A stretch of DNA of 64,000 bases, from assembly GCA_001782045.1 (NCBI GenBank), contig MFNK01000012.1:21753-85752 (forward strand), in the 5' to 3' direction. The DNA comes from Candidatus Levybacteria bacterium RIFCSPHIGHO2_01_FULL_36_15b (GTDB lineage Bacteria > Patescibacteriota > Microgenomatia > Levybacterales > UBA12049). The position numbers and the translations under genes were made by a program. Shown here piece after piece: positions 3,986 to 53,512 of this stretch (the first letter of the stretch is position 1; each line of letters starts with the position of its first letter). The notes beneath the pieces are model-generated. The model saw nothing but the letters and a program-made list of their open reading frames with translations. It had not been told where the DNA came from and did no database searches.

Positions 3986-4008
3986 GCAGCTATTTTAGCA
4001 CAAGATGA

Positions 4009-4971: not shown

Positions 4972-4984
4972 AATTATACCAAAT

Positions 4985-11174: not shown

Positions 11175-12020
11175 TCACTTCTGATGTACTGGGCAGAAGT
11201 AGGTACCGCGGCCTGCTAAGAAATTCTTTTGAATTACTCCACCATCATTTTTAGAACATTTTTCTCCTTGCCTACCATAAGCTAAACTATGATGTTGATA
11301 TTCTCCTTCTTGTCCTAATACATTTACAAAGTTTAATTCCGATGCGCCTCCATATTTCATACTTTTTTCCATTACTTTTAGTATTGAATCGTAAAGAAGT
11401 TTAATTTCGGAAGGGGAAAGATCTTTTGCCCGTCTTTTTGGGTTAATTCCGGCCAAAAAAAGCGCATCATTTGCATAAATATTTCCTATTCCGCCTATTC
11501 TAGTTTGATCCATTAAGAGTGGTTTTATTATAGTTTGTCTACCCGAAATTATCTTTTCAAACAACTCAAGTGTTAAATCTTTGAAAGGCTCTGGTCCCAT
11601 GTTCTTAAAGAATGGCATTTTAAAAACATCTTCTGTTTTTACCACTCTTATCCATCCAAAACGTCTTTTATCGTTGTAGTAAAGAAAAGCTCCCTTATCT
11701 AGTTTGAAAATTACGTGTGTAAATTGATTTGGAATTTTATCCCCTACTTTTTTGGATATTATAAATTTTGAAGTTTTTTCGTCTCTGTAAATTAACTGCC
11801 CTGTAAGTTTTATGTGGATTGCCAAGGAATATTTATTTGATAAATCAATAACCAAACCTTTTCCAAATCGGCGAACATCTTTAACTTTTGCTCCTATAAT
11901 GTCTTTCGATTGTCCTTCAAAAAGCTTTGCAACTTTAACTTCAACATTTTCTATCTTGTGTCCGACAAGATATTTCTGGAGTCCTAATTTTACTGTTTCA
12001 ACTTCTGGAAGTTCCGGCAT
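11175..12020 (-). CDS. mutM: Formamidopyrimidine-DNA glycosylase (Fpg/MutM)
   Basis: N-terminal MPELPEVE and a C-terminal zinc finger CxxC...CxxC. Confidence 0.85.
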   Translation of the reverse strand: MPELPEVETVKLGLQKYLVGHKIENVEVKVAKLFEGQSKDIIGAKVKDVRRFGKGLVIDLSNKYSLAIHIKLTGQLIYRDEKTSKFIISKKVGDKIPNQFTHVIFKLDKGAFLYYNDKRRFGWIRVVKTEDVFKMPFFKNMGPEPFKDLTLELFEKIISGRQTIIKPLLMDQTRIGGIGNIYANDALFLAGINPKRRAKDLSPSEIKLLYDSILKVMEKSMKYGGASELNFVNVLGQEGEYQHHSLAYGRQGEKCSKNDGGVIQKNFLAGRGTYFCPVHQK

Positions 12021-12067
12021 ATGTTAATAAACTATAGACTTTAAATAGCATCTCAAATCTTTTAGAT

Positions 12068-13186
12068 TTAATCTTTAATTTTTGATTTAACGAAGTTTTC
12101 TATTTCTTTCTTAAACCTTTCTTTACTAAATTTTTGTGCATGTTTTATAATTTCGTTTTGATCAAATTCCAATGTTTCAAAAATATGTATTGCCTCTATT
12201 AAACCGGCTAGAGAATATTCATAAAAGAATACCCCCGTCTTTCCCTCAACCACAGTTTCCTTGTAGCCTCCACCGTTAAACGCTATTACCGGCGTTCCGG
12301 CTAGCATGCTTTCAACCGGTGTTATTCCAAAATCTTCATCTTTTGCCAGAGCCAAAAATCCCTTTGCGCCTTTGTAAAGCTTTGAAAGTTCTTCGTCTGT
12401 TACTTGACCCAAGAATTGAACATTTTGTTTAGCTTTTGAGGCTAACTTATCGTATTCAAAATAATAACCCGCAGGTGCTCCTGCAATTTTTAGCTTAAAT
12501 CCCATTTTACTTGCCGCTTCAACTGCCAAATCAAGTCCTTTTGCGCCAACAATTCTGGAAACTATAAAATAATAATCCTTACGGGATTTACTATTTACCA
12601 TCGACGATTTACCAACAGGAAGTGACACTGGAGGATAAATTACTGTTGAATCTCTTCTGTAGAATTTTTGAATCCTTGATTGCACCTCTTTGGAATTTGC
12701 AATAAAAAAATTTACTTTTTGAGCTCTTTTAAAGTCATAAAGTCTTAAAAAATGTCCAACAATTGCAGCATATGCCCTAACTATTGCGAATTTTTGAAAA
12801 TTAACAGAGGTGGTATATCCATAAAGCCATCGCGGAGGCGTATGGCAATAACAAATCTCTATAAATTTTGAATTTGAGCGCTTGAATCCTTTTGTAATAA
12901 ACCAACTGGCAGAACTTATCACAACGTCAAAATCTTTAAAGTTAAAGCTTCCCCAAATAAACGGCGTTAAAAAACGTAAAGGTGAAGCTAATTTTCCCGC
13001 AAAAGGAAGTAAATTGAACCAGGAAGAGACTATTTTTTTATTTTTGAAATGGGAATAAGCACTCGAGTTTTTATCAACAAAGGCTGTATAAATTGCAGCA
13101 TCAGGATAAATTTCGCAAAGCGCTTCTAGTACTCTTTCCGCACCTCCAAATTCCTTAATATAATCATGAACTATCGCAGCTTTCAT
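12068..13186 (-). CDS. Glycosyltransferase family 4 (GT1-fold)
   Basis: EDFGITPVESMLAGTPVIAF motif. Confidence 0.7.
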   Translation of the reverse strand: MKAAIVHDYIKEFGGAERVLEALCEIYPDAAIYTAFVDKNSSAYSHFKNKKIVSSWFNLLPFAGKLASPLRFLTPFIWGSFNFKDFDVVISSASWFITKGFKRSNSKFIEICYCHTPPRWLYGYTTSVNFQKFAIVRAYAAIVGHFLRLYDFKRAQKVNFFIANSKEVQSRIQKFYRRDSTVIYPPVSLPVGKSSMVNSKSRKDYYFIVSRIVGAKGLDLAVEAASKMGFKLKIAGAPAGYYFEYDKLASKAKQNVQFLGQVTDEELSKLYKGAKGFLALAKDEDFGITPVESMLAGTPVIAFNGGGYKETVVEGKTGVFFYEYSLAGLIEAIHIFETLEFDQNEIIKHAQKFSKERFKKEIENFVKSKIKD

Positions 13187-13252
13187 CCCGTTAGAAATAA
13201 ACCGCTCCTTGGACGGTTGTTTTTATTCTTGAATAAAAAATTTCTAACGGGA

Positions 13253-14188
13253 TCATAAAAGTTCTAGTTGATTTTCCTCTTTCTTTTTCAATACAGAAGG
13301 TTTAAATTCTTCTTTTATCTCTGTTATCTCATCTGCCTTTTCCAAATTAAACCTTTGTATTAAACTATTAAATTTAAGCATCTTAAAGTTTTCTAAAATG
13401 CCTTTTTCATTTATATCTGCAGCCTTACATTCCGTATTTTTATATTTAATTGGCGAGTTTACATCTATTGTTGCCAGTTTTTTTGCCAAGGCAGCCTGCT
13501 CTGCATCCGTTGCTAGTTTTTCAGATACTTTTGGAGCAATTTCACCCAGGTTATTATAAAGATTTTCAAGATTTTGAAATCTACTAATTAAATCGCTTGC
13601 TGTTTTTGGCCCGATTCCCATAACCCCGGGGTAATTATCCGAAGCATCCCCCACCAAAGCTTTGTAATCGGGGATTTGCTCGGGCTGTAATCCGTATTTT
13701 TCAACCACTGCTGCCTTGTCGAACAAAATCATTTTAGTAACACCGGTTATTGGAGCTATCATTCTTACATGTCCATTAACCAGCTGCAGTAAGTCTCTAT
13801 CGCCGGAAAGTATTATGACCTCTTCTTTTGCCTGATTTGAAATAGTTCCTATCAAATCGTCTGCTTCAAAACCATCTACTTCGAATATTTTAAATTTAGA
13901 CTGCAGAAGAATATCGTGAATCAAGACAAATTGAGAAGAAAGTTCATCTTCCATCTTTGGTCTTTGTGCCTGATAGCCTACGTACATTTGTTTTCTAAAG
14001 GTCGGGGCTTCTCTATCAAAACAAACAACAATATATGTAGGTTTTAAATCGTTTATAACTTTTAAAACCATTGCAAAGAAACCGTAAACAGCATTTGTAG
14101 GTTTTCCTTTATGGGAATGAAGCGGAGGTAGAGCGTGATAAGCCCTGTGAACTATGGCATTTCCATCTATTAAAAGAAGCTTTTCCAT
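13253..14188 (-). CDS. 5'-3' exonuclease (Pol I N-terminal / FEN-like)
   Basis: LLLIDGNAIVHRAYHAL...VCFD and GIGPKTA motifs. Confidence 0.8.
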   Translation of the reverse strand: MEKLLLIDGNAIVHRAYHALPPLHSHKGKPTNAVYGFFAMVLKVINDLKPTYIVVCFDREAPTFRKQMYVGYQAQRPKMEDELSSQFVLIHDILLQSKFKIFEVDGFEADDLIGTISNQAKEEVIILSGDRDLLQLVNGHVRMIAPITGVTKMILFDKAAVVEKYGLQPEQIPDYKALVGDASDNYPGVMGIGPKTASDLISRFQNLENLYNNLGEIAPKVSEKLATDAEQAALAKKLATIDVNSPIKYKNTECKAADINEKGILENFKMLKFNSLIQRFNLEKADEITEIKEEFKPSVLKKKEENQLELL

Positions 14189-14210
14189 ATCCGCAATTAT
14201 ATCAGGTGGG

Positions 14211-14801
14211 CTACTTTTCAGAAAGCTTGAGGTAAACGTTGGCTTGAGCTAGTGAAGTTAACGGAACGGTTACTAATAACCCGACTATCAAAAGAAAGAA
14301 ACCAAAAATATTTAAAAGCATGCTTACGATTCCAAATCCCAGAAGCGTAAAAAAGTTGTTTTTAGTTAGTTTCCAGCTCCCTTTTATAGCCTCTATTGGG
14401 CCCAATTGTTTTTCAACTATTAAAAACCCAACGAATTGAAGCCTAACGGCAAATACAATACCTGGAATAATAAGGGCCAGGAATCCTAAAAATATTACAA
14501 CTCCAGAAAGAAAATTTCCAATTATTAATTTTAAAACTGATTTATAGTCTTTTAGTCGAGAAGATATTGTTGTTTTCCTTTTGTTAAAAGCGCTTACTGT
14601 AAAAGTGACTATTGCAACCTGTACTAATGCTCCAAAAATCCAAGATTCAATATTTGAAATAATTGAGCCTAGCTGCGAAGATATTGCTAAATTTAAAATC
14701 GAAATTACGCCGATTAAAAGAAAAAATCCTATTATATTTTTAGGATTTTTTTTAAGAGTTTTCCAGGAAGTAGTTATTACTTGTTCTATAGAGAAGTCCA
14801 T
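14211..14801 (-). CDS. Hypothetical polytopic membrane protein
   Basis: Four or five hydrophobic helices and no recognisable motif. Confidence 0.45.
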   Translation of the reverse strand: MDFSIEQVITTSWKTLKKNPKNIIGFFLLIGVISILNLAISSQLGSIISNIESWIFGALVQVAIVTFTVSAFNKRKTTISSRLKDYKSVLKLIIGNFLSGVVIFLGFLALIIPGIVFAVRLQFVGFLIVEKQLGPIEAIKGSWKLTKNNFFTLLGFGIVSMLLNIFGFFLLIVGLLVTVPLTSLAQANVYLKLSEK

Positions 14802-14844
14802 AATTTTATTATTTGTCTAAATTTTTATTCTGTCAATGGGCAAC

Positions 14845-16704
14845 TTAAGCCTTAACAGTAGCGTATGCTGCTTTTTTGGGGCCGATTAATTTTTCAAACT
14901 CTTCAGATTCAATCGTTTCCTTTTTTAGAAGCTCTTCTGCCAGAACATCCAGCTTGTTTCTTAATTTCTTGAGTACTTGATTTGCTTTTATATATGCTTC
15001 GTCTGTAATTTTTTTAACTTGCGAGTCGATTCTTGCAGCCATATCGGGCGAAATATTAGGGCTTTCGTAGGGCATCCTTTTGGCTTCCCCGTCTAAATTT
15101 ATTGGGCCAAGTTCGCTCATTCCATATTCAACAACCATTGTTCGGGCAACTTGAGTTGCTTTTGCAATATCATCAGATGCTCCTGTTGTTAATTCTTTAA
15201 ATACCAAGTTTTCAGCCGCTCTTCCTCCAAGCATTACCGCAATTTCTTCCATTAAATGAGTTTTTGTTTCATGAACTCTATCTATTGGCTCCATCATTGT
15301 GTGACCCAAACTCATTCCTCTTGATACTATAGAAATTCTATGAATCGGGTCCATGTTTGGCATAAACCATGAAACTAAAGCATGCCCGGCTTCGTGATAT
15401 GCTGTCATTTTTCTATCCATGTCTGATTGAAGTCTTTTCTTTTCAGGTCCTAATTTTACTTTGGTTGCTGCTTCTTCCAAATCCTGCATATCAATCTGTT
15501 TTTTAGCAAGTCTTGCTGCTAAAATTGCAGACTCGTTTAACATATTTTCCAAATCAGCTCCTGAGAATCCAACTGTTCTTCTTGCAATTCGACTCCAGTT
15601 AACATTTTTCTCGAAAGGTTTTCCCCGTGCATGGATTTTAAGAATTTCCTGCCTACCATTAACGTCCGGCAGTTCAAGCATTACGGTTCTATCAAATCTT
15701 CCGGGACGGACTAGTGCCGGGTCTAAAACATCGGGTCTGTTTGTTGCTGCCATAACAACTAGCTGCTCATTTGGCGTAAAACCGTCCATTTCAACTAGAA
15801 TTTGGTTAAGCGTCTGCTCTCGCTCGTCATGTCCGCCCATAAAACCTGCGCCGCGTTGTCTTCCAATAGCATCAATTTCATCTATAAAAATAATTGCGGG
15901 CTGTGCTTTTTTTGCGTTATTAAACAAATCCCGAACGCGAGAAGCTCCAACTCCAACTAGCATTTCCATAAATTCACTTCCCGCCATAGAGAAAAAAGCA
16001 ACTTCCGCCTCTCCCGCTGTTGCTCTTGCAAGGAGTGTCTTACCTGTTCCCGCAGGGCCAATCATCAACACGCCTTTTGGAGTTCTTGCTCCCATTGCCT
16101 TGTATTTGCCCGGATTTTTAAGAAAATCTACAACTTCTGTTAATTCCTGCTTTGCTTCATCTACTCCAGCCACATCTTTAAAACTGACTTTTGGAGTATC
16201 TTTGCTGTAAAGCTTTGCAGATGATTTTCCGAAAGAGAAAATGCTCTCCTGAGCTCCTCTTGCCTGCCTGAATATAAACCAGAAAAAAGCGACCATTAAA
16301 ATAATTGGAAGAATTCCTGTTAAAATGCTTATCCAATTATTAAGTGTCGTTTCATCTTTTACAGCCACTTTTGTTTTTCCTAAATCAACTCCTGCGTCTT
16401 TAAAAAGCTGATAAACGCTGGCGTTTGTTTCTTTAAAACTCTCTACTGTTTGATTTTTTTCTTTAGCAACTATTTTATTGGGATAAACCTCAATTGAGCT
16501 TACTTTTCCTCCCTTTACGTCAGAAATTATTGTTGAAAGGGGAACTGTTTTAGATTGCTCAGTTGTTCCACTTCCTGTTGGCTGGGTTATTCCAAAAAAT
16601 AAAAATGCAGTAAAAGCAATTAGAAAAACATAAATGATTATATTTTTCCATGACCATTTCATTTTAAAGTTTTTAAATTTTTTCGGTCTTTTTAGCCTTG
16701 CCAT
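14845..16704 (-). CDS. ftsH: ATP-dependent zinc metalloprotease FtsH
   Basis: Walker A GPAGTGKT, the SRH region, and zinc motif HEAGHAL. Length 619 aa. Confidence 0.9.
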
Positions 16705-16747
16705 AAGTAGGCCAAATTATAACACAGCTTGAACTTGAATAAAAGAC

Positions 16748-17737
16748 TTATACGAGGCTTAGGCTTTCTTTTACTTGGTTGAGTGTTTCCCCAGCAATTC
16801 TTCTTGTCTTCTCTGCACCCTCTTTTAAAATTGCATCTAAATCTTGCGCTTTAAATTCTAATCTTTTCTTTCTTATTGGCTCAAGTAATGAATTAAGAAC
16901 TTCTACCAAAAACTTTTTAACTTCAACATCTCCGACTTCACCTTTTTGGTATCTAGTTTTAAAGTCTTCCACTTTTTTTAAATCGGCCTCGCTTGCAAAA
17001 GTATCAAGATAAACAAAAACGGGATTTCCATCTACAGTCCCAGGGTCGTTGGCATGAATTCTTTTTGGGTCGGTATACATTCCCATTACTTTTTTTTCTA
17101 CTTCTTCTTTTGAATCAGATAAATAAATAGTGTTATTTAGGCTTTTTCCCATTTTTGGATTTCCGTCTGTTCCCACAAGCTTTCCTACTCTTCCAATCAA
17201 GGCTTTGGGTTCTGGGAATAATTCGCTTTTTGCAAATTTATTTATAACTCTTGCGATTTCTCTTGTCTGCTCTAAATGCGCTTCTTGATCTTTTCCAACA
17301 GGCACAAGCTCTGCTTTTACGCACAAAATGTCAGCTGCCTGATAAATTGGATAGTTAATAAAACCTAAGGAGAATAAATCACCTAAGCCTTTAGAAGCAA
17401 TTTCATCTTTAATTGTGGGGTTTCTTAGGGCTCTATTATGCGAAACATACATACTAAAAATAGATGCTAGTTCGTAAATTTCAGCAACGTCTGATTCTTT
17501 AAAGAAAGTAACTTTTTTAGGATCAAGTCCAATAGATAAATTGTCTAAAAGAACTTCTTTTGTATATTCTTTAATTTTTTCAGGAACCTCGGAAAGTGTG
17601 GTTAAGGCATGCGTGTCTGCCAATATAATAAAAACTTCATATTCGTTTTGAAGTTTTACGCGGTTTTCCAATGTTCCTACAAAATGACCCAAATGAAGCC
17701 TTCCTGTAGGAGTATCGCCTGTTAAAATCCTTTTCAT
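16748..17737 (-). CDS. trpS: Tryptophanyl-tRNA synthetase
   Basis: TGDTPTGRLHLGHFVG (HIGH-type) and KMGKS (KMSKS). 329 aa, a size typical of TrpRS rather than TyrRS. Confidence 0.75.
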   Translation of the reverse strand: MKRILTGDTPTGRLHLGHFVGTLENRVKLQNEYEVFIILADTHALTTLSEVPEKIKEYTKEVLLDNLSIGLDPKKVTFFKESDVAEIYELASIFSMYVSHNRALRNPTIKDEIASKGLGDLFSLGFINYPIYQAADILCVKAELVPVGKDQEAHLEQTREIARVINKFAKSELFPEPKALIGRVGKLVGTDGNPKMGKSLNNTIYLSDSKEEVEKKVMGMYTDPKRIHANDPGTVDGNPVFVYLDTFASEADLKKVEDFKTRYQKGEVGDVEVKKFLVEVLNSLLEPIRKKRLEFKAQDLDAILKEGAEKTRRIAGETLNQVKESLSLV

Positions 17738-17751
17738 GACTTAATTATACA

Positions 17752-18951
17752 TTAAAGCCATAATTTTTTGAGGTTTGGAAAATTATTGTTGAGAATTGAT
17801 TCGCGGATTTGACGGGTAAGATTTAGTAAAAAATGTACATTGTGTAGGCTCAATAAGTTATAAGAAAGCAGTTCACGAGAGCGGAATAAATGATGGATAT
17901 ATGCTCTACTAAAGTTTTGGCACGAATAACAGTTGCAGTTTGAATCAAGTGGTTTTGAATCTTTCCGGTATTGCGGCTTATCAATGTCTGTTCTAAATCT
18001 GTTTTTCATGCTACCTTGTGGTGGTGAAATAAAAAAGAAACCTGTTCGTCCAATTCTTGTTGGAATTACGCAGTCAAAAGTATCAACTCCACGCTCTATA
18101 ATTTCAAAAATATCATCTATCTCCCCAATTCCTAGAAGATGTCTGGGTTTTTCTTCGCTTGTATTTTTAACTGTCCAGTCAATTACGTCATAGAGATTTT
18201 TCTTTGATAGATGTGCCCCACCTAACGCAATTGCGTCGAAATTTTTGTCTACAAATTTTGCGCTTTCAGTCCTCAATTCTTTGAATTGTCCACCATGAGT
18301 TACTCCATATAAAAGTTGCGATTTGTTCTTTTGAGACGCTTTTGAGCGCAATTCCCAACGATTTGTGAGCTCCAAGCTCTTCTTTGTTTTCTCGTGATCA
18401 TATTTTGGAGATTCCAAATCATCAAAGCTAACTATTAAATCCGCTCCTAATTTTTCCTGAATTTCAATTGAGGACTCAGGTGTCAATTTATGAGTTGAGC
18501 CGTCTATGTGAGACTGAAATGTCACTCCTTCTTCCGTAATTCGGTTTAACCGTCCTGAGCCTGTCGAAGGATTGTTTTCGTCTGTTATAACATTGTTATA
18601 ACGTATCTCATTTCTTAGAAACTTTACTCCCCCGCCTTCTTTGCCAACTCCAAGTGAAAACACCTGAAATCCTCCGGAATCTGTCATAGTAGGGCTATTC
18701 CAGCTCATCCATTTAGAAAGTCCCCCCATTTTTTTTATCAGGTTTTCTCCCGGCCGAAGATGTAAGTGATAAGTATTTGCCAAAACAATTTGTGCTCCGG
18801 CTTCTTTTAAATCCTTTGGCGAGATTGCTTTCACGCTTCCTTGTGTTCCAACAGGCACAAAAGCAGGCGTTTCAATGTCTCCGTGGGGAGTTTTTATAAT
18901 CCCGGCCCTAGCGGCTTTGCTTTTCTTGATAATTTTGAAAGTGGGTTTCAT
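17752..18951 (-). CDS. tgt: Queuine tRNA-ribosyltransferase
   Basis: N-terminal ARAGIIKTPHGDIETPAFVPVGT and zinc site CNCYSC...H. Confidence 0.85.
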   Translation of the reverse strand: MKPTFKIIKKSKAARAGIIKTPHGDIETPAFVPVGTQGSVKAISPKDLKEAGAQIVLANTYHLHLRPGENLIKKMGGLSKWMSWNSPTMTDSGGFQVFSLGVGKEGGGVKFLRNEIRYNNVITDENNPSTGSGRLNRITEEGVTFQSHIDGSTHKLTPESSIEIQEKLGADLIVSFDDLESPKYDHEKTKKSLELTNRWELRSKASQKNKSQLLYGVTHGGQFKELRTESAKFVDKNFDAIALGGAHLSKKNLYDVIDWTVKNTSEEKPRHLLGIGEIDDIFEIIERGVDTFDCVIPTRIGRTGFFFISPPQGSMKNRFRTDIDKPQYRKDSKPLDSNCNCYSCQNFSRAYIHHLFRSRELLSYNLLSLHNVHFLLNLTRQIRESILNNNFPNLKKLWL

Positions 18952-20273
18952 TTTTTGAGGGCATTTACTTCTTTTCTAAACTGTTCGCCTCTGTCTTTAT
19001 AGTTCTTAAACATATCATAACTTTTGCACGCCGGGGACAAAAGAACAATGTCGCCGCTTTTTGCAATTTTCGAAGCTGCTAAAACTATTTTTTCCATACT
19101 ATCTGCCCCTTCAACGAGAATTAGATTTGATTTTTGATATTTGATTTTTGATTTAATTTTCGGCCAATCTCTTCCGATCCCTATAATTGCTTTTATAGTT
19201 TCGTTCTTTGAAATTATACCTCCGAGTTCTATGAAGTCGCTCCCCTCGCTTAAACCACCCAAAATAAGAATTTTAGGCTGGTTAAAAGCCGCAATCGCAG
19301 CCATTGCGCTCTCGGGATTTGTAGCAATCGAATCGTCATAATATTTAACTCCACCAACTTCTATAACAAGCTCAAGTCTATGCGGAAGTCCTTTAAAATC
19401 GTGGATCGCAGCTTTCATTACCTCGATTGAGACACCAGATAAATATGCTGCTACAGAAGCTGCTGCTATGTTTTCAAAATTGTGAGCTCCGGGAATAATA
19501 ATATCTTTTGTATCGATTACTTTCCTATCGTTTCCAGCAATTCTCAGCCATATTGCTTCATCTTTAACAAAAGCGCCTTCATCTACATCCCTTTCACGCG
19601 AGAAAAAATAGATTTTTCCATCTGTGTGAATATCCGATTCACTGCTTGCAGGATAGTCTCTATTTATAATTGCAAAATCAGAAGAATTTTGAAAACGTAT
19701 CAAATTTCTTTTTGCATCAATATATTCGTCTAAATCTTTATGGAAATTTTTCTGCCACTTAGAAGGTATAAGATGTTCTGATGTAACCATTAACATTACT
19801 GCAATATGGGGGCTTTTATGTAAGTCTTGCAACTGAAAACTGGAAAGTTCTAACACCACAATTGATGAACTGTTTAGTTGTTCAATAAAGTCCAATGGGG
19901 GCTTTCCGATATTGCCGCCTAAATACACATCTTTTCCACTTTTTTTCAACATTTCCTGTATTAGTGAGGATGTCGTTCCCTTTCCTTTTGTTCCGGTTAC
20001 TCCAATAATGGGACACGGACATAAATCGAAAAAGAGTTTTGTTTGGGATGTTACTTTTTCCTGAGGAACATTTTTTAGAAGTTCTAATTTAATTCCCGGA
20101 CTTCTAACAACTAGATCATATTTCTCTAAGTTATCTAAATAATTACTCCCCTGTTTTTGATCAAGTATTGTAACTTCTGCATCTTGTTTTTCAAGAAACT
20201 TTGCGCTCGATAATCCCTCTATTCCCTCTCCGATTACGGCGATTTTTTTATTCTTAAAATTCATGTAGGCCAA
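18948..20273 (-). CDS. murD: UDP-N-acetylmuramoylalanine--D-glutamate ligase
   Basis: Mur-ligase P-loop GVTGTKGKGTT plus N-terminal Rossmann IAVIGEGIEG. Confidence 0.8.
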   Translation of the reverse strand: MAYMNFKNKKIAVIGEGIEGLSSAKFLEKQDAEVTILDQKQGSNYLDNLEKYDLVVRSPGIKLELLKNVPQEKVTSQTKLFFDLCPCPIIGVTGTKGKGTTSSLIQEMLKKSGKDVYLGGNIGKPPLDFIEQLNSSSIVVLELSSFQLQDLHKSPHIAVMLMVTSEHLIPSKWQKNFHKDLDEYIDAKRNLIRFQNSSDFAIINRDYPASSESDIHTDGKIYFFSRERDVDEGAFVKDEAIWLRIAGNDRKVIDTKDIIIPGAHNFENIAAASVAAYLSGVSIEVMKAAIHDFKGLPHRLELVIEVGGVKYYDDSIATNPESAMAAIAAFNQPKILILGGLSEGSDFIELGGIISKNETIKAIIGIGRDWPKIKSKIKYQKSNLILVEGADSMEKIVLAASKIAKSGDIVLLSPACKSYDMFKNYKDRGEQFRKEVNALKK

Positions 20274-23299: not shown

Positions 23300-24160
23300 A
23301 TGAAATCGATTACCCTCCGTTCTGCCCTCGAGGAGTTCAAAAATTTTCTTAAAAATAATCAGAAAAGCAACTCTACAATAGTTGCATATGGCAAGGATAT
23401 TGACCAGCTTTTAACCTTTTTAGAAGGTTTGGAAAGAGGAGAAATAAGCCATGTGTTAAAAGAAGACTTAGATTCTTTTTTGGCAAAACTTTCCAAAGAA
23501 GGATATACTCCTAAGTCGGTTTCGCGAAAGATTAACTCAATTAGAACTTTTTATAGATTCCTTAAAGTTTCCGAATACATAGAAGAAGACCCTTCCCTTT
23601 TGGTGGTTCATCCTAAATACGAACTAGCACCACCCAGAATTTTAACTCCAACAGAATACAGAGCTTTGCGTGATGCTGCAAGGGGAGACGGCAGAATGTT
23701 TGCAATAATTGAGCTTTTACTTCAAACAGGAATTAGAATCGGAGAACTTGCCAATTTAAGGTTATCTGATGTTGGAAAAGATACTTTGCACATTTTGCCT
23801 TTTGAAAAACATGAAGAAAGAACAATTGCATTAAATAAAAGGGCACAGGAAGCGTTGCAAAGATATATGACAGTTCGGCCAAAGGTAGAAGACGATCATT
23901 TGTTTGTTACAAAAAGCGGAAAACCATTCTTGATTCGAAATATAAGAACTGCAGTAGAAAGGTATTTTAGACTTGCAGAAATTCAAGCTGCCAAAGTAAA
24001 TGATTTAAGGCACACTTTTGTAGCACACCACTTAAAACACGGTGTATCGTTACAGGTGTTGAGTAAAACACTAGGACACAAAAGACTTTCCACAACGGAG
24101 CGATATCTTCAATACGTGCCCGAACGCGGCAAAGACACCTCAGTACTTACGGAACTTTAA
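23300..24160 (+). CDS. Tyrosine site-specific recombinase, XerC/XerD-like
   Basis: N-terminal SAM-like core-binding domain. Catalytic R...HxxR...Y appears as ARGDGRM, LRHTFVAHHL and RYLQY. 286 aa. Confidence 0.75.
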   Translation: MKSITLRSALEEFKNFLKNNQKSNSTIVAYGKDIDQLLTFLEGLERGEISHVLKEDLDSFLAKLSKEGYTPKSVSRKINSIRTFYRFLKVSEYIEEDPSLLVVHPKYELAPPRILTPTEYRALRDAARGDGRMFAIIELLLQTGIRIGELANLRLSDVGKDTLHILPFEKHEERTIALNKRAQEALQRYMTVRPKVEDDHLFVTKSGKPFLIRNIRTAVERYFRLAEIQAAKVNDLRHTFVAHHLKHGVSLQVLSKTLGHKRLSTTERYLQYVPERGKDTSVLTEL

Positions 24161-24161: not shown

Positions 24162-24473
24162 ATGACAATAGAAGTTAAAGACAGAGGAATAAAAGGTCTT
24201 TTTACAAAAACCAAATCTTATCAAGTAGGAGAACCCGTAAATATTCCATACAAGCAGATTCTCGATGATGACAGCCTAATTCACGGCAGAGATTTACTTA
24301 CTGAATTACCAAATGGAAGAATAAGCATTGAAAGTATGATTGATTTTCATCCTATTGAATTTATGACTGTTCTGCGTGGAGATGAAAGCTTAGAGGTTCC
24401 AGCAAGAGAGATTGGAAAGTATGATTTGGGATTTAGAGCAGGAAAAAAAGTAGTTTGGAAACCCTCTAAATAG
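24162..24473 (+). CDS. Hypothetical protein, IEVRDRGI-family paralog 3
   Basis: N-terminus MTIEVKDRGIKGLF. It is immediately downstream of the recombinase. Confidence 0.4.
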   Translation: MTIEVKDRGIKGLFTKTKSYQVGEPVNIPYKQILDDDSLIHGRDLLTELPNGRISIESMIDFHPIEFMTVLRGDESLEVPAREIGKYDLGFRAGKKVVWKPSK

Positions 24474-24545
24474 TGCTCCCGCTTGGATTCGAACCAAGGA
24501 CATCTACTTTATAAGAGTAGCGCTCTACCACTGAGCTACAGGAGC
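24474..24545 (-). tRNA. tRNA-Ile (anticodon read as UAU)
   Basis: Manual fold of the reverse complement: GCTCCTG-TA-GCTC-AGTGGTA-GAGC-G-CTACT-CTTATAA-AGTAG-ATGTC-CTTGG-TTCGAAT-CCAAG-CGGGAGC-A. Confidence 0.7.
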
Positions 24546-24560: not shown

Positions 24561-26933
24561 TCAGAGGCGGGCGCGTTGGGCAATAATTGGCTCGAGTTTA
24601 TTAACCGGCACTCCGTATTTTACTCTAGATAATTCCCTAATTAACTCGGCAACTCTTTTGTTTTCCACTTGCTTTTCCTTGGTCATATCTCTTGTTAAAT
24701 CCATAGAAAATGAAGTTACAGGCTCGTTATTTACAATGGTTTTAACATAGGCGTTATAAACATCTACATTAATTAAATCTGCCTCTGTAAAAGTCGGCTG
24801 AAACTCGTGTTGTAGGTAGCTCGCATCCGTTACCCCTACTCTAAACGCTGCCAAAGTACCAACGTTTCCGAAAATTGCATTTTTAACCTCTTCATCCATT
24901 TGTCCTATAAACTGGTTTGCAACAATTAAATTGAGCCTGTATTTTCGGGCTTCTGACAAAATCTGTGCAAAATCAGGTGTTGCAAAGTTTTGAAACTCAT
25001 CTACATATAAATAAAAGTCTCGTCTTGATTCTTCTGGTATATCCTGCCTGCTCATTGCTGCAACCAAAATCTTAGGAACCAAAACTAAACCTAAGAAGCT
25101 AGCGTTTTCTTCTCCTATTTTTCCTTTGGATAAAGAGACGAGAAGAATTTTACCCTCATCCATTGCCTTTCTAAAATCAAATGCGCTCTTGCTTTGCCCA
25201 ATTATGTTTCTCATCATCTTATTTGTGACAAACCGGCCAAATTTGGAAACAATATAATCTAAGGTTTCTGATTTATGGAAATCGGAAGTCTGTGCAATTT
25301 GGTCTGTCCAATAACGTCTAATAATTGGATCCTGGACTTTAGGAAGCAGCTCCTGAACAAAATTTGAATCAGTAAGAGCACGTACAACTTCTATAAAAGT
25401 GCTTCCCGGCTCGCTCATTACGGTTAACATTGCGTTTCTTATAGCATGCTCAAAACGGGGGCCAATAATTCCGGTTTTATTGGGGTCGTAAAGCTTGTAC
25501 ATGAGCCCTACAATTGAGCTTACAATATAGTGTTTTTCCTGCTCGGTTTGGGCCTCTAACATGTTTAGTCCAAGAGGCATTTCCGTGTCTGATGGATCAA
25601 ATAAAATTACATCTTCTGCCCGCTCCGGCGGAATTAAAGGTAAAAGTTTATCTATTGTGTCGTGGGGATCGATAAAGCAAACCCCTTCCCCATTTCTTAT
25701 GTCCTGCAAAATCATGTCTTTAAGAAATTCGGATTTTCCCGTTCCAGTTTTTCCAATTACATACATATGTCTTCGTCTGTCATCTTTTTGAATATATACA
25801 GGTTTTGCCATACCCCTGTATGTACTCATTCCAAGATAAAGTCCTGTACTTGGAATTTGAACGGGTGCGGGCGCTTTTTTGGCATTAAGCCAGAAAATAT
25901 GAGGCGTTTGTATGGTTTTATTTGGAAAATGATAAACTCCGGCAAGCTCTTCGCTTGTTAAAACCGAAAAGTTTCCGGTTGCCGGGAAGTAGCGATAAAT
26001 AAAATCTGTTATAAAATTTCCTTTTAAAAACTGCTTCTGTTTTGTAAATTCATTAAATGACGCAAACTGATCGAATGCATTTTCCAAATTGTTAAGATGG
26101 GCCTCTGCTGCTTCCTTAGTAGAGGATGAAACAACCAATCTTACTACTGTATAAAAGCCGGGTTTTCCTATTTTTTGCTCAACAGCTTCAAGTTCTTTAG
26201 GGTCTGAAGAATACTTTGCAGTTTCCGGGTTTGATTCTCTTTTTTTAGTATCTGCGATGTGTTTTCTACCCATCTTAGACCATTTTGAATCTGCACCAGA
26301 AATTAAAATTTGAATTGCTGCGCCCTCTCCTTCCCCCATTTTGGCAAGGACAGAAGTTATTGAGGATATTGGATCAACTGCAAATTCTTTATAAACTTTT
26401 AAGGATTTGTAATTACTGTCTTTAAGTTTCAAGGTTTTGAATGCAACGCTACCATTTTCAGAAAATATATTATATTCATTGCCTAAAATGTAGCCTTCCT
26501 TTGAGTATCTCGAATTACCTTCTTCTACGACTCGTATTTCGGCATCCGGGTAAGAAGCGTTAATCTGCTTTTCAACCATGTCTTTATATTTATTAGGTGT
26601 GTATATGAAAAACCGAATGTCGCCAGGCATTCCTACTATTTCAAAAGATATATGAGGTCTGTATTTTAAAAACTGCAGGCGACCGCTTGATTTTATCCCT
26701 GCAAAAGCGCTAAAAAGCTGTTCTGCGGCGTCAATTTTTATTTCGTTGTCTCTTGGAAGCGCAATTTGCAAAAGAGTCGAGTCTAAGGAATGCTTTTCGC
26801 GTTCTCTATTTCTGTACCAAACCATCCAAACATATCCAAGCCCAACCACTACAGCAGCCATTAAGATAAGAATTCCTACTGTAACAAATAGCGATATTAG
26901 TAACTGAGTTAGAGCTGTTAAAGAATTTATCAT
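24561..26933 (-). CDS. VirB4/TrbE/CagE-family type IV secretion ATPase with N-terminal TM segment
   Basis: Walker A VIGKTGTGKSEFLKDM and Walker B LYVDEFQNFAT. 790 aa with an N-terminal hydrophobic helix. Confidence 0.8.
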   Translation of the reverse strand: MINSLTALTQLLISLFVTVGILILMAAVVVGLGYVWMVWYRNREREKHSLDSTLLQIALPRDNEIKIDAAEQLFSAFAGIKSSGRLQFLKYRPHISFEIVGMPGDIRFFIYTPNKYKDMVEKQINASYPDAEIRVVEEGNSRYSKEGYILGNEYNIFSENGSVAFKTLKLKDSNYKSLKVYKEFAVDPISSITSVLAKMGEGEGAAIQILISGADSKWSKMGRKHIADTKKRESNPETAKYSSDPKELEAVEQKIGKPGFYTVVRLVVSSSTKEAAEAHLNNLENAFDQFASFNEFTKQKQFLKGNFITDFIYRYFPATGNFSVLTSEELAGVYHFPNKTIQTPHIFWLNAKKAPAPVQIPSTGLYLGMSTYRGMAKPVYIQKDDRRRHMYVIGKTGTGKSEFLKDMILQDIRNGEGVCFIDPHDTIDKLLPLIPPERAEDVILFDPSDTEMPLGLNMLEAQTEQEKHYIVSSIVGLMYKLYDPNKTGIIGPRFEHAIRNAMLTVMSEPGSTFIEVVRALTDSNFVQELLPKVQDPIIRRYWTDQIAQTSDFHKSETLDYIVSKFGRFVTNKMMRNIIGQSKSAFDFRKAMDEGKILLVSLSKGKIGEENASFLGLVLVPKILVAAMSRQDIPEESRRDFYLYVDEFQNFATPDFAQILSEARKYRLNLIVANQFIGQMDEEVKNAIFGNVGTLAAFRVGVTDASYLQHEFQPTFTEADLINVDVYNAYVKTIVNNEPVTSFSMDLTRDMTKEKQVENKRVAELIRELSRVKYGVPVNKLEPIIAQRARL

Positions 26934-27397
26934 GTAGTTTGCCTTTTTCTTATTCTAAAAAAATCTAAAAATTTGTTTATCTTATCTACTAAAGTTGCCA
27001 GACCCAATTTTGAGGGAACAACGTATGCATCATGTTCACCGTGTTCTCCTATATCGTAGGTAACTTTGTTTTCGTACTGTTTCATTACGCCTTGCGCTTC
27101 TTCTTCAGTCATCGGAAGCTGAACCGTACCAATTGAATCGGTATTGACAGGAGTATCAACGGGGGCGTGAGCTATTCCGATTCTCTCATGAGTTTTATCA
27201 AGTTCAATTTTATCCGTGCGTGCTTCAACTCCTATGTCTTTTAGCTCTTGTTCTACTTGTGGCTGGGTTTCAGAAGTTACAGATTCATTAACATATGAAG
27301 AAACTGGTCTTTCAACCTCTTTTGCAACACTTCCTGCTTGAGGAACTGGTGCTTGATTGTTTTGATTTGGATTTGGATTATTTTGAACGTCTACCAC
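26930..27397 (-). CDS. Hypothetical protein, translationally coupled upstream of the VirB4-like ATPase
   Basis: 4-bp overlap with the VirB4 start. N/Q/P-rich N-terminus. Confidence 0.4.
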   Translation of the reverse strand: MVDVQNNPNPNQNNQAPVPQAGSVAKEVERPVSSYVNESVTSETQPQVEQELKDIGVEARTDKIELDKTHERIGIAHAPVDTPVNTDSIGTVQLPMTEEEAQGVMKQYENKVTYDIGEHGEHDAYVVPSKLGLATLVDKINKFLDFFRIRKRQTT

Positions 27398-27440
27398 ATT
27401 ATAATTCTATCACAAAACTTAATTTAATCTTTATAATAAC

Positions 27441-27501
27441 CTGACAATTTACCCTGTTAAATGGCTTTGCCAATTTGTTTAATCAAATTATTTAACAGGG
27501 T
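27441..27501 (-). promoter_or_regulatory. Palindromic operator-like element (ACCCTGTTAAAT-N27-ATTTAACAGGGT) plus an adjacent TTGTCA box, upstream of the VirB4 operon
   Basis: Perfect 12-bp inverted repeat at 27451-27462 and 27490-27501. The same element recurs at 53423-53481. Confidence 0.5.
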
Positions 27502-27531
27502 GAAAATTAAACTCACAAAATCTTAACAAAA

Positions 27532-27672
27532 CTATCCCTTAAGAGATCCGCAGACTGGACAAGTTGTTAATTTACCATTTACTACCATCTGAAATTCTAT
27601 ATCACTTGGTTCCCAACCGCAGTTTCTGCATATAATTTTGTAACAAACCTCGCAATCTTTTTCTCTTTCCAT
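27532..27672 (-). CDS. Small zinc-ribbon protein (46 aa), not in the ORF track
   Basis: Hand translation MEREKDCEVCYKIICRNCGWEPSDIEFQMVVNGKLTTCPVCGSLKG shows two CxxC pairs. Confidence 0.35.
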   Translation of the reverse strand: MEREKDCEVCYKIICRNCGWEPSDIEFQMVVNGKLTTCPVCGSLKG

Positions 27673-27673: not shown

Positions 27674-28834
27674 TTAGTTTAGTTTTGAATAAGGTGCAGA
27701 TTTTCCACACTCAGGGCAACTTATTCTTCCTCCTCCTATTGCTGCTTCAACCTGCCTTTGGCAAAAAGGGCATTTACAACAAAGTGTGGTTTGTTCGGTT
27801 TTTTTCTGACCGAATTGGGCCACGCTATAAGGATTATTTATATTCTCGGCACTTGCCAAATTGAACCCTGCGGAAACACCTGGACAAGGACCCCCTGCTA
27901 CTCTGGGTGTGAACATTCCCATCGTGGCGGCCTTTCTCTCTACTTGCTCGTCTGGAGCAAAGGCAGCCCAATATTCTAGTTTTTTAATAAATTCGTTATC
28001 GTTATTAACGATAGCAGATAGGGTTTCGTCTGTTTGGTTTAAGACAGAGTTAAACTTTAGACGGTGGGTAAAGAAGTCATACGGATTTTTAATCAAAGAG
28101 TTTATGTAGCTCACCGTCAAACGTGCATTAATTTTGTTAATGAGCTCAAGTTTTTCTTCATCTAGAGCTACTGCGTCTTTATTTAAGTATTTTTGGACAT
28201 CATCTGAGGACTCGAAAACATCTACGTTTATGGGCTCTTTTAGAAAATCGGATGCCCTTTCGTAACTTTGGCAGTTAGTAAATGGTTTGAGTTTTTCTTT
28301 ATACTGCTCTAAAGTTAGGGTAGATAAATACCTGTTTAACTCTACGTATCTTTTCCCATTCTCATCCTCTTTCAGCTCATAAACGTCGAAAAAATTGTTT
28401 GTATAGTCGGAGCCTTTTTCTCCCCTTGACGAAACCGAGAGCCTTTTTGCCCCCACTTTAGAATCTTTGACAGTTAGCTCGGCTTGAGTTTTTACTGCCC
28501 CCAAAAGCTCTGCATCTTCGCGATCGAAATCCAACGGGTTACCATATTTTCTTCTGTATTCAACTCCTTTTCTTACCATGTCCTCCATTGATTGATTTAC
28601 CCCGTCAGCCACCATTTTCTCCTCAACGATCTCAAAGCGGGTTGTCGACCTTATAGCACTTACCCTTTCTCCTATGTATGTTTCTAGCTGTCTTCTGGTA
28701 TAAGTTTTTAACCTTTGTTGCTCGGAGAATGTAAGTTGATGAAAGCTTCTGTAGTCTCTTTCGTCAAAAGAAGGATTGTATACAAGCTTTCTTTCCTCCT
28801 CAAAATTCGGTGTGTAAGTTTGTCTTTCTATCAT
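27674..28834 (-). CDS. Hypothetical protein with C-terminal Cys-rich zinc-ribbon
   Basis: 386 aa ending CCKCPFCQ...CPECG. Confidence 0.45.
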   Translation of the reverse strand: MIERQTYTPNFEEERKLVYNPSFDERDYRSFHQLTFSEQQRLKTYTRRQLETYIGERVSAIRSTTRFEIVEEKMVADGVNQSMEDMVRKGVEYRRKYGNPLDFDREDAELLGAVKTQAELTVKDSKVGAKRLSVSSRGEKGSDYTNNFFDVYELKEDENGKRYVELNRYLSTLTLEQYKEKLKPFTNCQSYERASDFLKEPINVDVFESSDDVQKYLNKDAVALDEEKLELINKINARLTVSYINSLIKNPYDFFTHRLKFNSVLNQTDETLSAIVNNDNEFIKKLEYWAAFAPDEQVERKAATMGMFTPRVAGGPCPGVSAGFNLASAENINNPYSVAQFGQKKTEQTTLCCKCPFCQRQVEAAIGGGRISCPECGKSAPYSKLN

Positions 28835-28900: not shown

Positions 28901-29449
28901 CTAAGATCTGGTGGACCAAATTACTTCTTTCTTTTTATCTTTTTTGTTAATAAATCGGGCATACACAAATAAAACGTCAGAAAGTCTATTGAGATAAATC
29001 AGTGTTTGAGGATTAACTTTTTCTTTTTCAGAAAGCTCTACAGTTTTTCTTTCAGCTCTTCTTGCAAGGGTACGGGCGTAATGTAGGTGGGATCCCGAGA
29101 CCGATCCTCCGGGAAGAATAAAGTTTTCTAGTTCTGGCAATTTTTTTGAGAGGTTATCGATTTGATATTCGAACTCTTCTGTTCTTTTAAACAAATATTT
29201 TCCCATTTCTTTAAATTTGCCAGTCGATGGGTTAGCAAGAAACGCTCCTATTTCAAAAAGATCATTCTGGATTCTTATTAGTTCTTTTTTAATTTCTTGA
29301 GGAAGTTTGTAGGAAAGCACAATGCCTAAATAACTATTGAGCTCGTCTAAGGTGCCGTATGTATTGACCCTAAGACTTGCTTTAGAAACGGTTTTACCTC
29401 CGTACAGAGATGTTTTTCCTTTGTCTCCAAATTTTGTATAAATTGACAT
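28901..29449 (-). CDS. PduO-type ATP:cob(I)alamin adenosyltransferase (start taken at MSIYTKFGDKG)
   Basis: MSIYTKFGDKGKTSLYGGKTVSKASLRVNTYGTLDELNS is the canonical PduO/MMAB N-terminus. The 41-codon upstream extension of the ORF is probably not translated. Confidence 0.7.
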   Translation of the reverse strand: MSIYTKFGDKGKTSLYGGKTVSKASLRVNTYGTLDELNSYLGIVLSYKLPQEIKKELIRIQNDLFEIGAFLANPSTGKFKEMGKYLFKRTEEFEYQIDNLSKKLPELENFILPGGSVSGSHLHYARTLARRAERKTVELSEKEKVNPQTLIYLNRLSDVLFVYARFINKKDKKKEVIWSTRS

Positions 29450-29473: not shown

Positions 29474-29649
29474 ACGAGAGGACTGCGGCTGCCCTGCTCG
29501 GAGCTTAAATTTTGTATCGTTTTCTGGATATACAGTACCGGCAGTTCCGCCGACTTTCACGGCGATTTCCAATACAAAGTTTTAAATTTTATTTAATTAG
29601 GACATTCGGCTGAGCTCAGTCGAAGCCAAAGTTGGACAAGTCATATTTA

Positions 29650-53422: not shown

Positions 53423-53481
53423 ACCCTGTAAAATAATTTGCTCACAAATTGCCTTAAGCATTTAACAGGGTAAACTTGACA
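53423..53481 (+). promoter_or_regulatory. Palindromic operator-like element (ACCCTGTAAAAT-N25-ATTTAACAGGGT) followed by TTGACA, upstream of the VirB6-like gene
   Basis: Arms at 53423-53434 and 53460-53471, with TTGACA at 53476-53481. Same architecture and orientation (relative to the downstream operon) as 27441-27501. Confidence 0.5.
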
Positions 53482-53512
53482 GGAGACTGAATTTATCTCA
53501 AACTGATACTAG

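Follow-up and report, generated by a model that had tools for sequence, protein, structure and literature searches.

A DUF8128-family ATPase with a coupling-protein-like motor, a predicted VirB4-type N-terminal domain, and a conserved small partner in a Levybacteria-like member of the Patescibacteria

The ATPase operon

In this work, we analyzed a 64,000-nucleotide (nt) stretch of Candidatus Levybacteria bacterium RIFCSPHIGHO2_01_FULL_36_15b (assembly GCA_001782045.1, contig MFNK01000012.1, positions 21,753 to 85,752), referred to as the window. A minus-strand run of four genes in the window comprises a 386-amino-acid (aa) open reading frame (ORF), a 46-aa ORF, a 134-nt gap, a 155-aa ORF, and a 790-aa ATPase, the last two of which are the subject of this study. 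The ATPase, a P-loop enzyme anchored in the membrane, falls within the VirB4/VirD4 branch of the FtsK-HerA superfamily and belongs to the Patescibacteria-wide DUF8128 family. Its identity, domain architecture, intact catalytic motifs, conserved pairing with the small upstream gene, location in the core genome, and coexistence with a separate VirB4 are directly supported by the data. The features of the operon, including the transmembrane (TM) helix and the segments of the motor, which resembles that of type IV coupling proteins (T4CPs), are as follows.

24561 to 26933, minus strand: 790-aa DUF8128-family ATPase, with a TM helix, a VirB4-type N-terminal domain (NTD, from a predicted structure), and a P-loop motor that is T4CP-like and contains an all-helical insert
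26814 to 26912, minus strand: single N-terminal TM helix, residues ~8 to 40 (helix 2 to 50 in the AlphaFold2 model)
25818 to 26801, minus strand: N-terminal cytoplasmic domain, residues 45 to 372, Pfam DUF8128, predicted VirB4-NTD-like fold
25731 to 25754, minus strand: Walker A GKTGTGKS, residues 394 to 401
24984 to 25001, minus strand: Walker B DEFQNF, residues 645 to 650
26930 to 27397, minus strand: 155-aa partner protein, GTG start, 4-nt overlap (ATGA) with the ATPase start

As described in the initial annotation of this DNA, both Walker motifs are present. Their key residues (G394, G399, and K400 in Walker A; D645 and E646 in Walker B) are invariant in an alignment of 52 family members, which are 33 to 93% identical to the window ATPase. 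The N-terminal TM helix is likewise borne out, as one strongly hydrophobic segment with a Kyte-Doolittle 19-residue maximum of 2.95. An equivalent lone hydrophobic N-terminal segment is found in nearly all members of the same alignment, and one family member (P0133) has an extra N-terminal TM segment. The basic stretch YRNREREKH that follows the helix suggests an N-out, C-in orientation. Since more than 7,000 homologues were found in an indexed protein database at E ≤ 1e-3, and 22,512 cluster representatives were matched at the same threshold (5,873 of them at E ≤ 1e-30), the gene and its features are not a product of chance.

Sequence family of the ATPase

In precomputed Pfam annotation, PF26449 (DUF8128) is found on a protein that is 100% identical to the window ATPase (P0001), on all 120 homologues among the matches listed, and on distant members. 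The family is catalogued, both in Pfam and in NCBI product names, yet uncharacterized, and no paper naming DUF8128 was found in the literature; the locus described here is an ordinary member of it.

The initial annotation had called the protein a VirB4-family ATPase, subject to its not aligning better to other families. In Pfam, the ATPase matches TrwB_AAD_bind (PF10412; 26.4 bits, cut-off 20.5) and TraG-D_C (PF12696; 26.1 bits, cut-off 22), and DUF87 is also above its gathering score, all three narrowly; the FtsK score is below its cut-off, and no match to the VirB4 Pfam family was found. Among the NCBIfam models, TraD-type and VirD4-like coupling proteins were matched with E values of 4.5e-12 to 7e-8, versus 1.6e-3 for VirB4_CagE (TIGR00929), on which the ATPase scores 16.8 bits against a cut-off of 643. 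Because the NCBIfam T4CP models (models of the TraD subfamily and equivalog type) are themselves far below their cut-offs, with 45 bits versus 366, the protein would be a distant member of the T4CPs at best.

Next, the family profile was compared with the chains of the PDB. TrwB (7.7e-8) and DotL (1.8e-6) were the only chains of a type IV secretion system (T4SS) found, HerA was matched weakly, and no VirB4 chain was found among the solved structures by either the single-sequence or the family-profile search. The same holds across the family: of 52 diverse members, 51 match TrwB_AAD_bind, 51 match TraG-D_C, and 30 match T4SS-DNA_transf (PF02534), while CagE_TrbE_VirB, the N-terminal family of VirB4, is matched by none and AAA_10 by nine. 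In a direct hhalign comparison (E 1e-5), the 790-aa protein and the VirB4 of the same genome are only distant relatives. At the sequence level, Pfam, NCBIfam, and the PDB profile search thus all align the ATPase better to the TraG/VirD4 type than to VirB4, and judged by its sequence it belongs with the coupling proteins TrwB, TraD, and VirD4. A T4SS_pilin match was also seen in one of the 52 members scanned, perhaps P0133.

We also observed motors of this kind in a group of much longer proteins. In proteins of ~1440 aa (P0182 and ~20 further representatives of ~1300 to 1510 aa; L101, positions 3034 to 7365), the C-terminal motor is 50 to 54% identical to that of the window ATPase, closer than in the DUF8128 paralogues of the Saccharibacteria. 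These proteins have no DUF8128 domain, and their N-terminal ~1000 aa match nothing beyond a faint TPR-like signal. The single genomic context viewed does not look Patescibacterial (Dak, FGGY, and acetyl-CoA synthetase neighbors).

Domain architecture and predicted fold

To our knowledge, the described T4CPs (TrwB, VirD4, TraD, and PcfC) pass from the TM region straight into the nucleotide-binding domain, and none carries a VirB4-type NTD. The AlphaFold2 model of the window ATPase, built from the family alignment (pLDDT 90.1, pTM 0.81), departs from that layout. Its top Foldseek matches are full-length TrwK/VirB4 (E 1e-15 to 1e-12, 800 to 890 aligned columns), as judged from a predicted structure and at the level of the fold. 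The matches of the whole protein are dominated by RecA-like ATPases, including 4ag5, a VirB4 entry comprising the C-terminal domain (CTD) only; because none of these is among the 60 matches listed for the NTD, the NTD would match the N-terminal domain of TrwK itself. No homology was found between the NTD and the TrsD/TraC-like protein of the same genome (hhalign probability, 1.3%).

As predicted, the structure has the two-domain build of VirB4, with an NTD followed by a RecA-like C-terminal ATPase domain. The T4CP layout, in which the TM anchor leads straight into the nucleotide-binding domain and all-alpha domain, was not found, as a VirB4-type domain of ~330 aa intervenes. In the motor, an all-helical insert (residues ~464 to 592) lies between Walker A and Walker B. 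On the basis of this model, the ATPase is a hybrid, which combines a TM anchor and a T4CP-like motor sequence with a VirB4-type NTD.

The protein thus resembles two groups of known ATPases in different ways. With the T4CPs (TrwB of R388, VirD4, TraD, DotL, and Cagbeta), it shares the N-terminal membrane anchor, the P-loop motor in which Walker A and B flank an all-helical insert, the Pfam matches to TrwB_AAD_bind and TraG-D_C, and a gene that is encoded apart from virB4, as is frequent for T4CPs. Unlike them, it has the ~330-aa VirB4-type NTD and is a core chromosomal gene outside any mobile element, and it has one TM helix where TrwB has two. With VirB4/TrwK/TraC, it shares the NTD and RecA-like CTD, the full-length Foldseek alignment to TrwK, and a small gene directly upstream that overlaps the ATPase start. 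Unlike VirB4/TrwK/TraC, it has no significant match to the VirB4 sequence family, has its own TM helix, and is encoded 26 to 39 kb from a T4SS cluster that holds its own VirB4.

Two other relatives with RecA-like motors were considered. An FtsK-like chromosome translocase, an idea that came from the Xer and DivIC genes near the ATPase, was rejected: the synteny is lost outside the Microgenomatia, FtsK is the poorer match by fold and by profile, and the FtsK of Southlakia epibionticum is canonical and essential. The FtsK/SpoIIIE features (motor profile, alpha and gamma winged-helix domains, and an N-terminus with four TM segments) are not found in the protein. An anti-phage defense ATPase (MADS mad8-like, DndH/DptH-like, or HerA-like) would account for a mad8 match of 1.1e-16, but this match is limited to residues 377 to 686 and reflects only the shared P-loop motor. 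In addition, none of the four adjacent upstream proteins that were scanned matches a PADLOC defense family, the gene is part of the syntenic core genome and occurs almost throughout the phylum, and the protein carries a TM anchor and, by prediction, a VirB4-type NTD. A defense role is thus extremely improbable.

The small upstream partner

The 155-aa protein is rich in N, Q, and P and devoid of TM segments (Kyte-Doolittle 19-residue maximum 0.77), and the TGA of its ORF overlaps the ATG of the ATPase (ATGA); in both respects, the initial annotation was accurate. It had also raised the question of whether the three-gene arrangement recurs next to VirB4 in related genomes. We examined 84 loci, of which 80 are from GTDB species genomes (Levy-, Beckwith-, and Gottesmanbacteria) and 4 from metagenomes. 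A same-strand ORF of ~60 to 190 aa abuts the ATPase in 81 of them, and an iterated hidden Markov model (HMM) search identified a homologue of the 155-aa protein directly upstream in 65 of these 81. In 58 of the 65 loci, the partner stop lies -8 to +15 nt from a possible ATPase start, with a 4-nt overlap in 13; the start codon nearest to the partner stop was used, a choice that inflates this count.

Divergence is far more rapid in the partner, with 53 to 65% identity where the ATPase has 84 to 93%. The family is marked by the short conserved motifs KE..P, EV..AGV, and V.LP[LM][TS]..E and by a low-complexity N-terminus, and most members have a C-terminal amphipathic helix, S.RWLAEW..R..K; the protein is probably mostly disordered. 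In more distant members of the ATPase family (L094, L095, L099, and L102), a small hydrophilic ORF also immediately precedes the ATPase. When the corresponding small proteins of other classes were compared with the family HMM, no homology was detectable, and they are positional analogues only. The conserved unit is a two-gene operon of the partner and the ATPase. In one subclade of the Microgenomatia, the partner is replaced by an unrelated acidic ORF of 60 to 90 aa with an "A.IP ... HHE" motif (L047, L050, L051, L054, L055, L057, L059, L063, L071, and L077).

Small proteins such as CagZ and the DotL adaptors bind and regulate a T4CP, and the pairing of a small accessory protein with a coupling ATPase, as in the Cagbeta-CagZ and DotL adaptor complexes, resembles the arrangement seen here. 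The structural matches of the ATPase include PDB entry 8dol, whose title refers to CagZ as regulating Cagbeta. No homology of the 155-aa protein to CagZ, IcmS/W, or DotM turned up in the searches, which included no direct comparison.

The secretion cluster and its own VirB4

According to the initial annotation, the T4SS is genomically split, with the ATPase as its VirB4 and the TM helix as a possible fused VirB3-like segment, yet the ATPase is apparently co-regulated with the distant channel and pilin genes. The features of the T4SS region in the window are as follows.

53513 to 55303, plus strand: first gene of the T4SS region, for a 596-aa protein that has a signal peptide, multiple TM segments, and no profile match
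60757 to 63636, plus strand: array of T4SS_pilin (VirB2-like) genes, Pfam PF18895

The distance was described correctly: the start of the polytopic membrane protein (53513) is 26.6 kb from the ATPase, and that of the first T4SS_pilin ORF (60757) is 33.8 kb away. From its position in the cluster, the 596-aa protein is a putative VirB6-like channel subunit. To follow the cluster past the window, it was traced for 10 kb beyond the last pilin gene of the window on the same 275-kb contig. Past the window end (L096, positions 10450 to 19352, equivalent to ~63.7 to 72.6 kb of the window), we found a fifth pilin gene, a 400-aa PrgI/VirB3-like protein, a 222-aa TraC/TrsD-like protein, and a 611-aa VirB4, followed by three genes of unknown function and then by dnaN and dnaA. 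With 388.9 bits, the 611-aa protein, an AAA_10/P-loop_TraG ATPase, exceeds the cut-off of 325 for NF045971 ("VirB4-like conjugal transfer ATPase, CD1110 family"), and it matches VirB4_CagE at 5e-30. This true VirB4 lies beside the pilin genes, ~2 kb beyond the window end and ~39 kb from the 790-aa ATPase.

Because a bona fide VirB4 is encoded in the cluster, next to the TrsD-like, PrgI/VirB3-like, and five pilin genes, the T4SS is neither without a VirB4 nor split as had been proposed, and the 790-aa protein is a second ATPase, separate from the VirB4 of the T4SS. The window ends inside an origin-proximal T4SS locus, with virB4 near oriC. A T4SS beside the replication origin, with TrsD adjoining VirB4, is the arrangement described for the Microgenomatia by Quinonero-Coronel et al. 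(PMC12102498), and the cluster of this genome matches it. The correction of this assignment leaves an intact T4SS whose own VirB4 is just outside the window.

Some points had favored the split arrangement, namely, the two-domain VirB4-like fold, a small upstream gene whose overlap with the ATPase start recalls that of virB3 with virB4, and a 60-nt element shared by the operon and the gene of the 596-aa membrane protein. Nevertheless, it is largely refuted by the separate VirB4, which is over its curated NCBIfam cut-off. The 16.8-bit score on VirB4_CagE and the lack of a match to the VirB4 N-terminal Pfam family also argue against it. The upstream partner has no TM segment and is soluble and of low complexity, unlike the membrane-bound VirB3; no VirB3-VirB4 fusions were found in Patescibacteria (PMC12102498); and relatives do not share the 60-nt element ahead of the operon. 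We consider this explanation very unlikely.

Three further proteins were observed in the T4SS region. A 1248-aa protein (55300 to 59046, minus strand) has no Pfam, NCBIfam, or PADLOC match and is highly charged, with the look of helical repeats. Just ahead of the pilin array are an Avd-like/23S-rRNA-IVP four-helix-bundle protein (59149 to 59529, plus strand) and a 435-aa protein with an OmpR-type winged-helix C-terminus (59548 to 60855, minus strand), a candidate regulator of the pilin genes.

The 60-nt repeat upstream of the operon

An inverted repeat in the 134-nt gap between the 46-aa and 155-aa ORFs, described in the initial annotation as an operator, is present, and it occurs twice in the window.

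27435 to 27509, minus strand: copy A, between the stop of the 46-aa ORF and the 155-aa ORF
53418 to 53494, plus strand: copy B, beginning 2 nt past the stop of an M23 peptidase and ending 19 nt ahead of the 596-aa gene

The ~60-nt element is Y-shaped, with an 11-bp outer stem (CCCTGTTAAAT / ATTTAACAGGG) around two hairpins. Copy B was recovered with an nhmmer E value of 6e-21 and 64.4 bits with a covariance model. A promoter-like sequence, TTAACA-16-TATTAT (27433 to 27460), overlaps the 3' arm of copy A. A pattern scan of metagenome contigs gave nine further copies (L085 to L093). When the two copies of the window were aligned with seven from metagenomes (nine sequences), compensatory changes (GC/CG/UA) were seen in the second hairpin, with 96.8% of cells paired; the 3' arm of the outer stem and the first hairpin were fixed by the search pattern and are uninformative on covariation. 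RNA-fold z-scores of the element range from -2.7 to -6.7. Most copies with flanking sequence lie just past a same-strand ORF stop and ahead of the next gene. Some have a promoter-like sequence that overlaps the 3' arm or comes after it.

A conserved operator was rejected, since no Rfam family exists for the element, the covariance model found it upstream of the partner-ATPase operon in 0 of 80 related genomes, and the genes downstream of it elsewhere are unrelated. The two window copies are presumably what the proposed co-regulation was based on, and they are weak evidence for a T4SS regulon. The element is possibly a terminator or insulator or a small mobile repeat, and its presence ahead of both the partner-ATPase operon and the leading gene of the T4SS cluster lends weak support to a link with the T4SS.

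Comparison with Southlakia epibionticum

The type IV secretion system is essential for the epibiotic lifestyle of S. epibionticum, the sole genetically tractable species of the Patescibacteria (candidate phyla radiation, CPR). In Table S1 of the transposon insertion sequencing (Tn-seq) study of Wang et al. 2023 (PMC10633639), SEML1_0142 and the upstream SEML1_0141 are both scored essential. SEML1_0141 is a 139-aa hypothetical gene located 13 nt upstream, with zero insertions and scores of GD/ES/ES. The representatives matched by neighborhood to SEML1_0142 and to its paralogue SEML1_0293 (P0202 and P0210, respectively) are both DUF8128 proteins; P0202 is surrounded by ChlI/YifB, small ORFs, and GyrB, and P0210 has a sigma factor directly upstream. 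By these synteny-matched proxies, SEML1_0142 and SEML1_0293 fall, like the window ATPase, in the DUF8128 family, and the arrangement of the window genes resembles the essential pair, a 139-aa hypothetical gene preceding SEML1_0142 as the 155-aa gene precedes the window ATPase. The S. epibionticum paralogues differ in being longer (921 to 1019 aa) and only 35 to 37% identical to the window ATPase, and the small partners have no detectable homology to each other. In an unrooted neighbor-joining tree, and with near-equal BLAST scores, the window ATPase was assigned to neither paralogue.

As far as we found, the VirB4-type NTD predicted on DUF8128 proteins, their conserved small partner, and the contrast between an essential and a dispensable paralogue are apparently undescribed. 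The study of Patescibacteria T4SSs cites only a non-essential t4cp homologue (PMC12102498).

Proposed function and alternatives

Patescibacteria contain 5,713 VirD4-type T4CP homologues in 2,918 genomes, of which 148 are near virB4 (PMC12102498). The window ATPase is evidently part of this population of orphan homologues, whose exaptation, according to the same study, cannot be excluded. Relaxases are rare in the phylum, with 109 in 103 genomes (PMC12102498), and no relaxase family was matched among the profile-scanned genes of the window.

On balance, we lean slightly toward the view that the ATPase and its partner work in association with the chromosomal T4SS. In such a mechanism, the ATPase would form oligomers, probably hexamers such as those of its structural relatives, on the inner side of the membrane, and its VirB4-like NTD would dock on the membrane platform of the T4SS (PrgI/VirB3-like protein, VirB6-like protein, and VirB4) or on another membrane partner. 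ATP hydrolysis may then drive the hand-over of a substrate or the dynamics of pilins and pili, and the small partner could act as an adaptor or regulator that sets activity or substrate choice.

Several observations weigh against this association. No homologue of VirB4, TrsD, PrgI, the VirB6-like protein, or the pilins was found within 6 to 8 kb of the ATPase in 91 loci, so that the gene neighborhood gives no support for a T4SS link. T4CP homologues are present in 2,918 of 3,035 Patescibacteria genomes versus 2,417 of 3,035 for VirB4 (PMC12102498). The T4SS cluster of S. epibionticum is reported to have no recognizable coupling protein or relaxase, and SEML1_0293 is dispensable there although the T4SS is essential (PMC10633639). 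The window ATPase is about equally close to both S. epibionticum paralogues, at 35 to 37% identity and BLAST scores of 478 and 461 bits. In addition, the 60-nt element is missing upstream of the operon in the 80 related genomes searched, and the genes 3' of its metagenome copies have no evident link to a T4SS.

The ATPase may instead be an essential motor that is independent of the T4SS, moving or extracting material at the membrane (in DNA or protein handling, DNA uptake linked to competence and type IV pili, or envelope biogenesis), with a kinship to T4SS ATPases that is evolutionary only. We give this alternative a lower probability than the association with the T4SS. It agrees with the wider occurrence of T4CP homologues than of VirB4, with a location among housekeeping genes and never beside T4SS genes, and with a very high conservation (62 to 93% identity across a class). 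Neighboring genes could be read in the same way: in one lineage, a ComF-like gene, with PilM, PilO, and PilB genes after it, is ~1 kb away from the ATPase, and in the Microgenomatia, the ATPase is next to Xer and DivIC. Nevertheless, the VirB4-type NTD is known solely from T4SS ATPases, and the neighborhoods vary between classes and so give no hint of a different process. In S. epibionticum, FtsK itself is canonical and essential, which argues against the replacement of FtsK as the role of such a motor.

Returning to an association with the T4SS, a broader and more tentative idea, which we regard as doubtful at present, is that DUF8128 proteins constitute a third, so far unrecognized lineage of T4SS-type ATPases, intermediate between VirB4 and T4CPs, in which the docking NTD of VirB4 is retained on a TM-anchored motor of coupling-protein type. 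With their fast-evolving, probably disordered upstream adaptors, they would make up an essential core module of the Patescibacteria, which could be the "missing" coupling component of an essential T4SS that has no relaxase. Patescibacteria represent a large share of bacterial diversity, and according to the structural model the near-universal orphan T4CP homologues of the phylum would carry a VirB4-type NTD. The two-gene unit is conserved in the class examined and has positional analogues in other lineages, and by Tn-seq one of the two paralogues is essential along with its partner, whereas the one discussed in the literature is dispensable. The protein pair is thus a testable candidate either for a missing part of the CPR secretion machinery or for a separate essential motor. 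If the hybrid architecture is true, it could inform how coupling proteins arose from VirB4-like ancestors.

Gene neighborhood and chromosomal context

The window represents core chromosomal DNA from a Levybacteria-like member of the Patescibacteria with low GC content and carries genes for FtsH, TrpRS, penicillin-binding proteins, GAPDH, PGK, ribonucleotide reductase (RNR), and transfer-messenger RNA. Downstream of the ATPase are the following features.

24473 to 24545, minus strand: tRNA-Ile, anticodon UAU (ARAGORN and Rfam), 16 nt 3' of the ATPase stop
23300 to 24160, plus strand: XerC/D-like tyrosine recombinase, convergent with the ATPase (Pfam Phage_integrase and SAM-like N-terminal domain)

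An isoleucine tRNA with a UAU anticodon is uncommon in bacteria, in which a lysidine-modified CAU tRNA is usual. The gene order in the Microgenomatia is NrdR-RNR-PduO ... ATPase-tRNA-Xer-DivIC. The Xer recombinase was found in 58 and DivIC in 50 of the 84 loci, the position of Xer being kept within the Microgenomatia, and a tRNA was present 3' of the ATPase in all 8 related loci scanned. Across the 80 Levy-, Beckwith-, and Gottesmanbacteria loci, the ATPase is 62 to 93% identical to that of the window. The other neighbors of the ATPase are housekeeping genes that differ between classes.

A coupling-protein gene beside a tRNA and a tyrosine recombinase could also be the remnant of an integrative mobile element. 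The tRNA-Ile just 16 nt downstream and the adjoining Phage_integrase-family recombinase fit such an origin, as does a faint NikA-like match 3.4 kb away. However, the gene order recurs in dozens of species, and the identities of the neighboring genes fall in step with that of the ATPase. There is no GC anomaly in the window, the recombinase has the SAM-like N-terminal domain of the XerC/D type, no relaxase family was seen among the profile-scanned genes, and no T4SS genes lie within 6 to 8 kb. We give such a remnant hardly any credence.

The cobalamin-riboswitch operon

Upstream of the 134-nt gap are the following features.

27532 to 27672, minus strand: 46-aa Cys6 zinc-ribbon-like ORF, beginning 1 nt past the stop of the 386-aa gene
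27674 to 28834, minus strand: 386-aa protein of unassigned family, Cys-rich motif (CxCxxC...CxxC) in its C-terminal part; PduO and the riboswitch are upstream
28901 to 29446, minus strand: PduO-type adenosyltransferase coding sequence, downstream of the riboswitch
29509 to 29588, minus strand: adenosylcobalamin (AdoCbl)-II riboswitch (Rfam RF01689; 42.1 bits versus a gathering score of 36.5)

The 46-aa CxxC...CxxC ORF, put forward in the initial annotation, is a real gene, since it is conserved by tblastn and its substitutions are in excess at third codon positions. Of the 84 loci, 17 contain it by tblastn; its motif in them is C..C[YF]KIKC..CGWEP...CP.CG, and it is left uncalled by gene callers in the relatives. 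Compared with ten orthologues, it has 82, 110, and 199 substitutions at codon positions 1, 2, and 3, respectively; all six cysteines are kept, and the pattern CxxC-x4-CxxC ... CxxC is conserved in the orthologues examined. A database of 5.8 billion protein sequences held no entry that shared enough words with the 46-aa protein for scoring, and its profile scores are below the cut-offs (Pfam Zn_ribbon_8, 17.7 bits versus 34.4; TIGR02605, 13.7 versus 31.3).

The initial annotation had treated the 46-aa ORF, the 155-aa ORF, and the ATPase as a three-gene arrangement. The 46-aa ORF keeps with PduO and the 386-aa gene where these are parted from the ATPase (L037, L038, and L043): in L037 and L043, other genes lie between it and the ATPase operon, and in L038, it is 8 kb away on the opposite strand, near PduO. 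Because it stays with PduO and the 386-aa gene when the ATPase is separated, it belongs with the upstream PduO/riboswitch operon. The arrangement consists instead of two units, a cobalamin-riboswitch operon (PduO, 386-aa, and 46-aa genes) and the partner-ATPase operon.

The 386-aa protein has no Pfam, NCBIfam, or PADLOC match and gave tblastn matches in 22 loci, some of them partial. An AdoCbl-II riboswitch was found in 5 relatives (L004, L005, L010, L040, and L043), upstream of PduO or of a 386-aa-type gene; in L004 and L010, it lies directly ahead of a 386/452-aa-type gene. These findings suggest an uncharacterized, cobalamin-regulated protein family in Patescibacteria, encoded beside the B12-dependent class II RNR.

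Elsewhere in the window, we observed a 615-aa MoxR-type AAA_5 ATPase beside a 683-aa VWA-domain protein and two unknown ORFs (4985 to 9932, minus strand) and a Fic-domain protein (862 to 1923, minus strand). A related Levybacteria-like locus carries a match to a group I intron (RF00028, 70.3 bits; L027, positions 14461 to 14654, plus strand).

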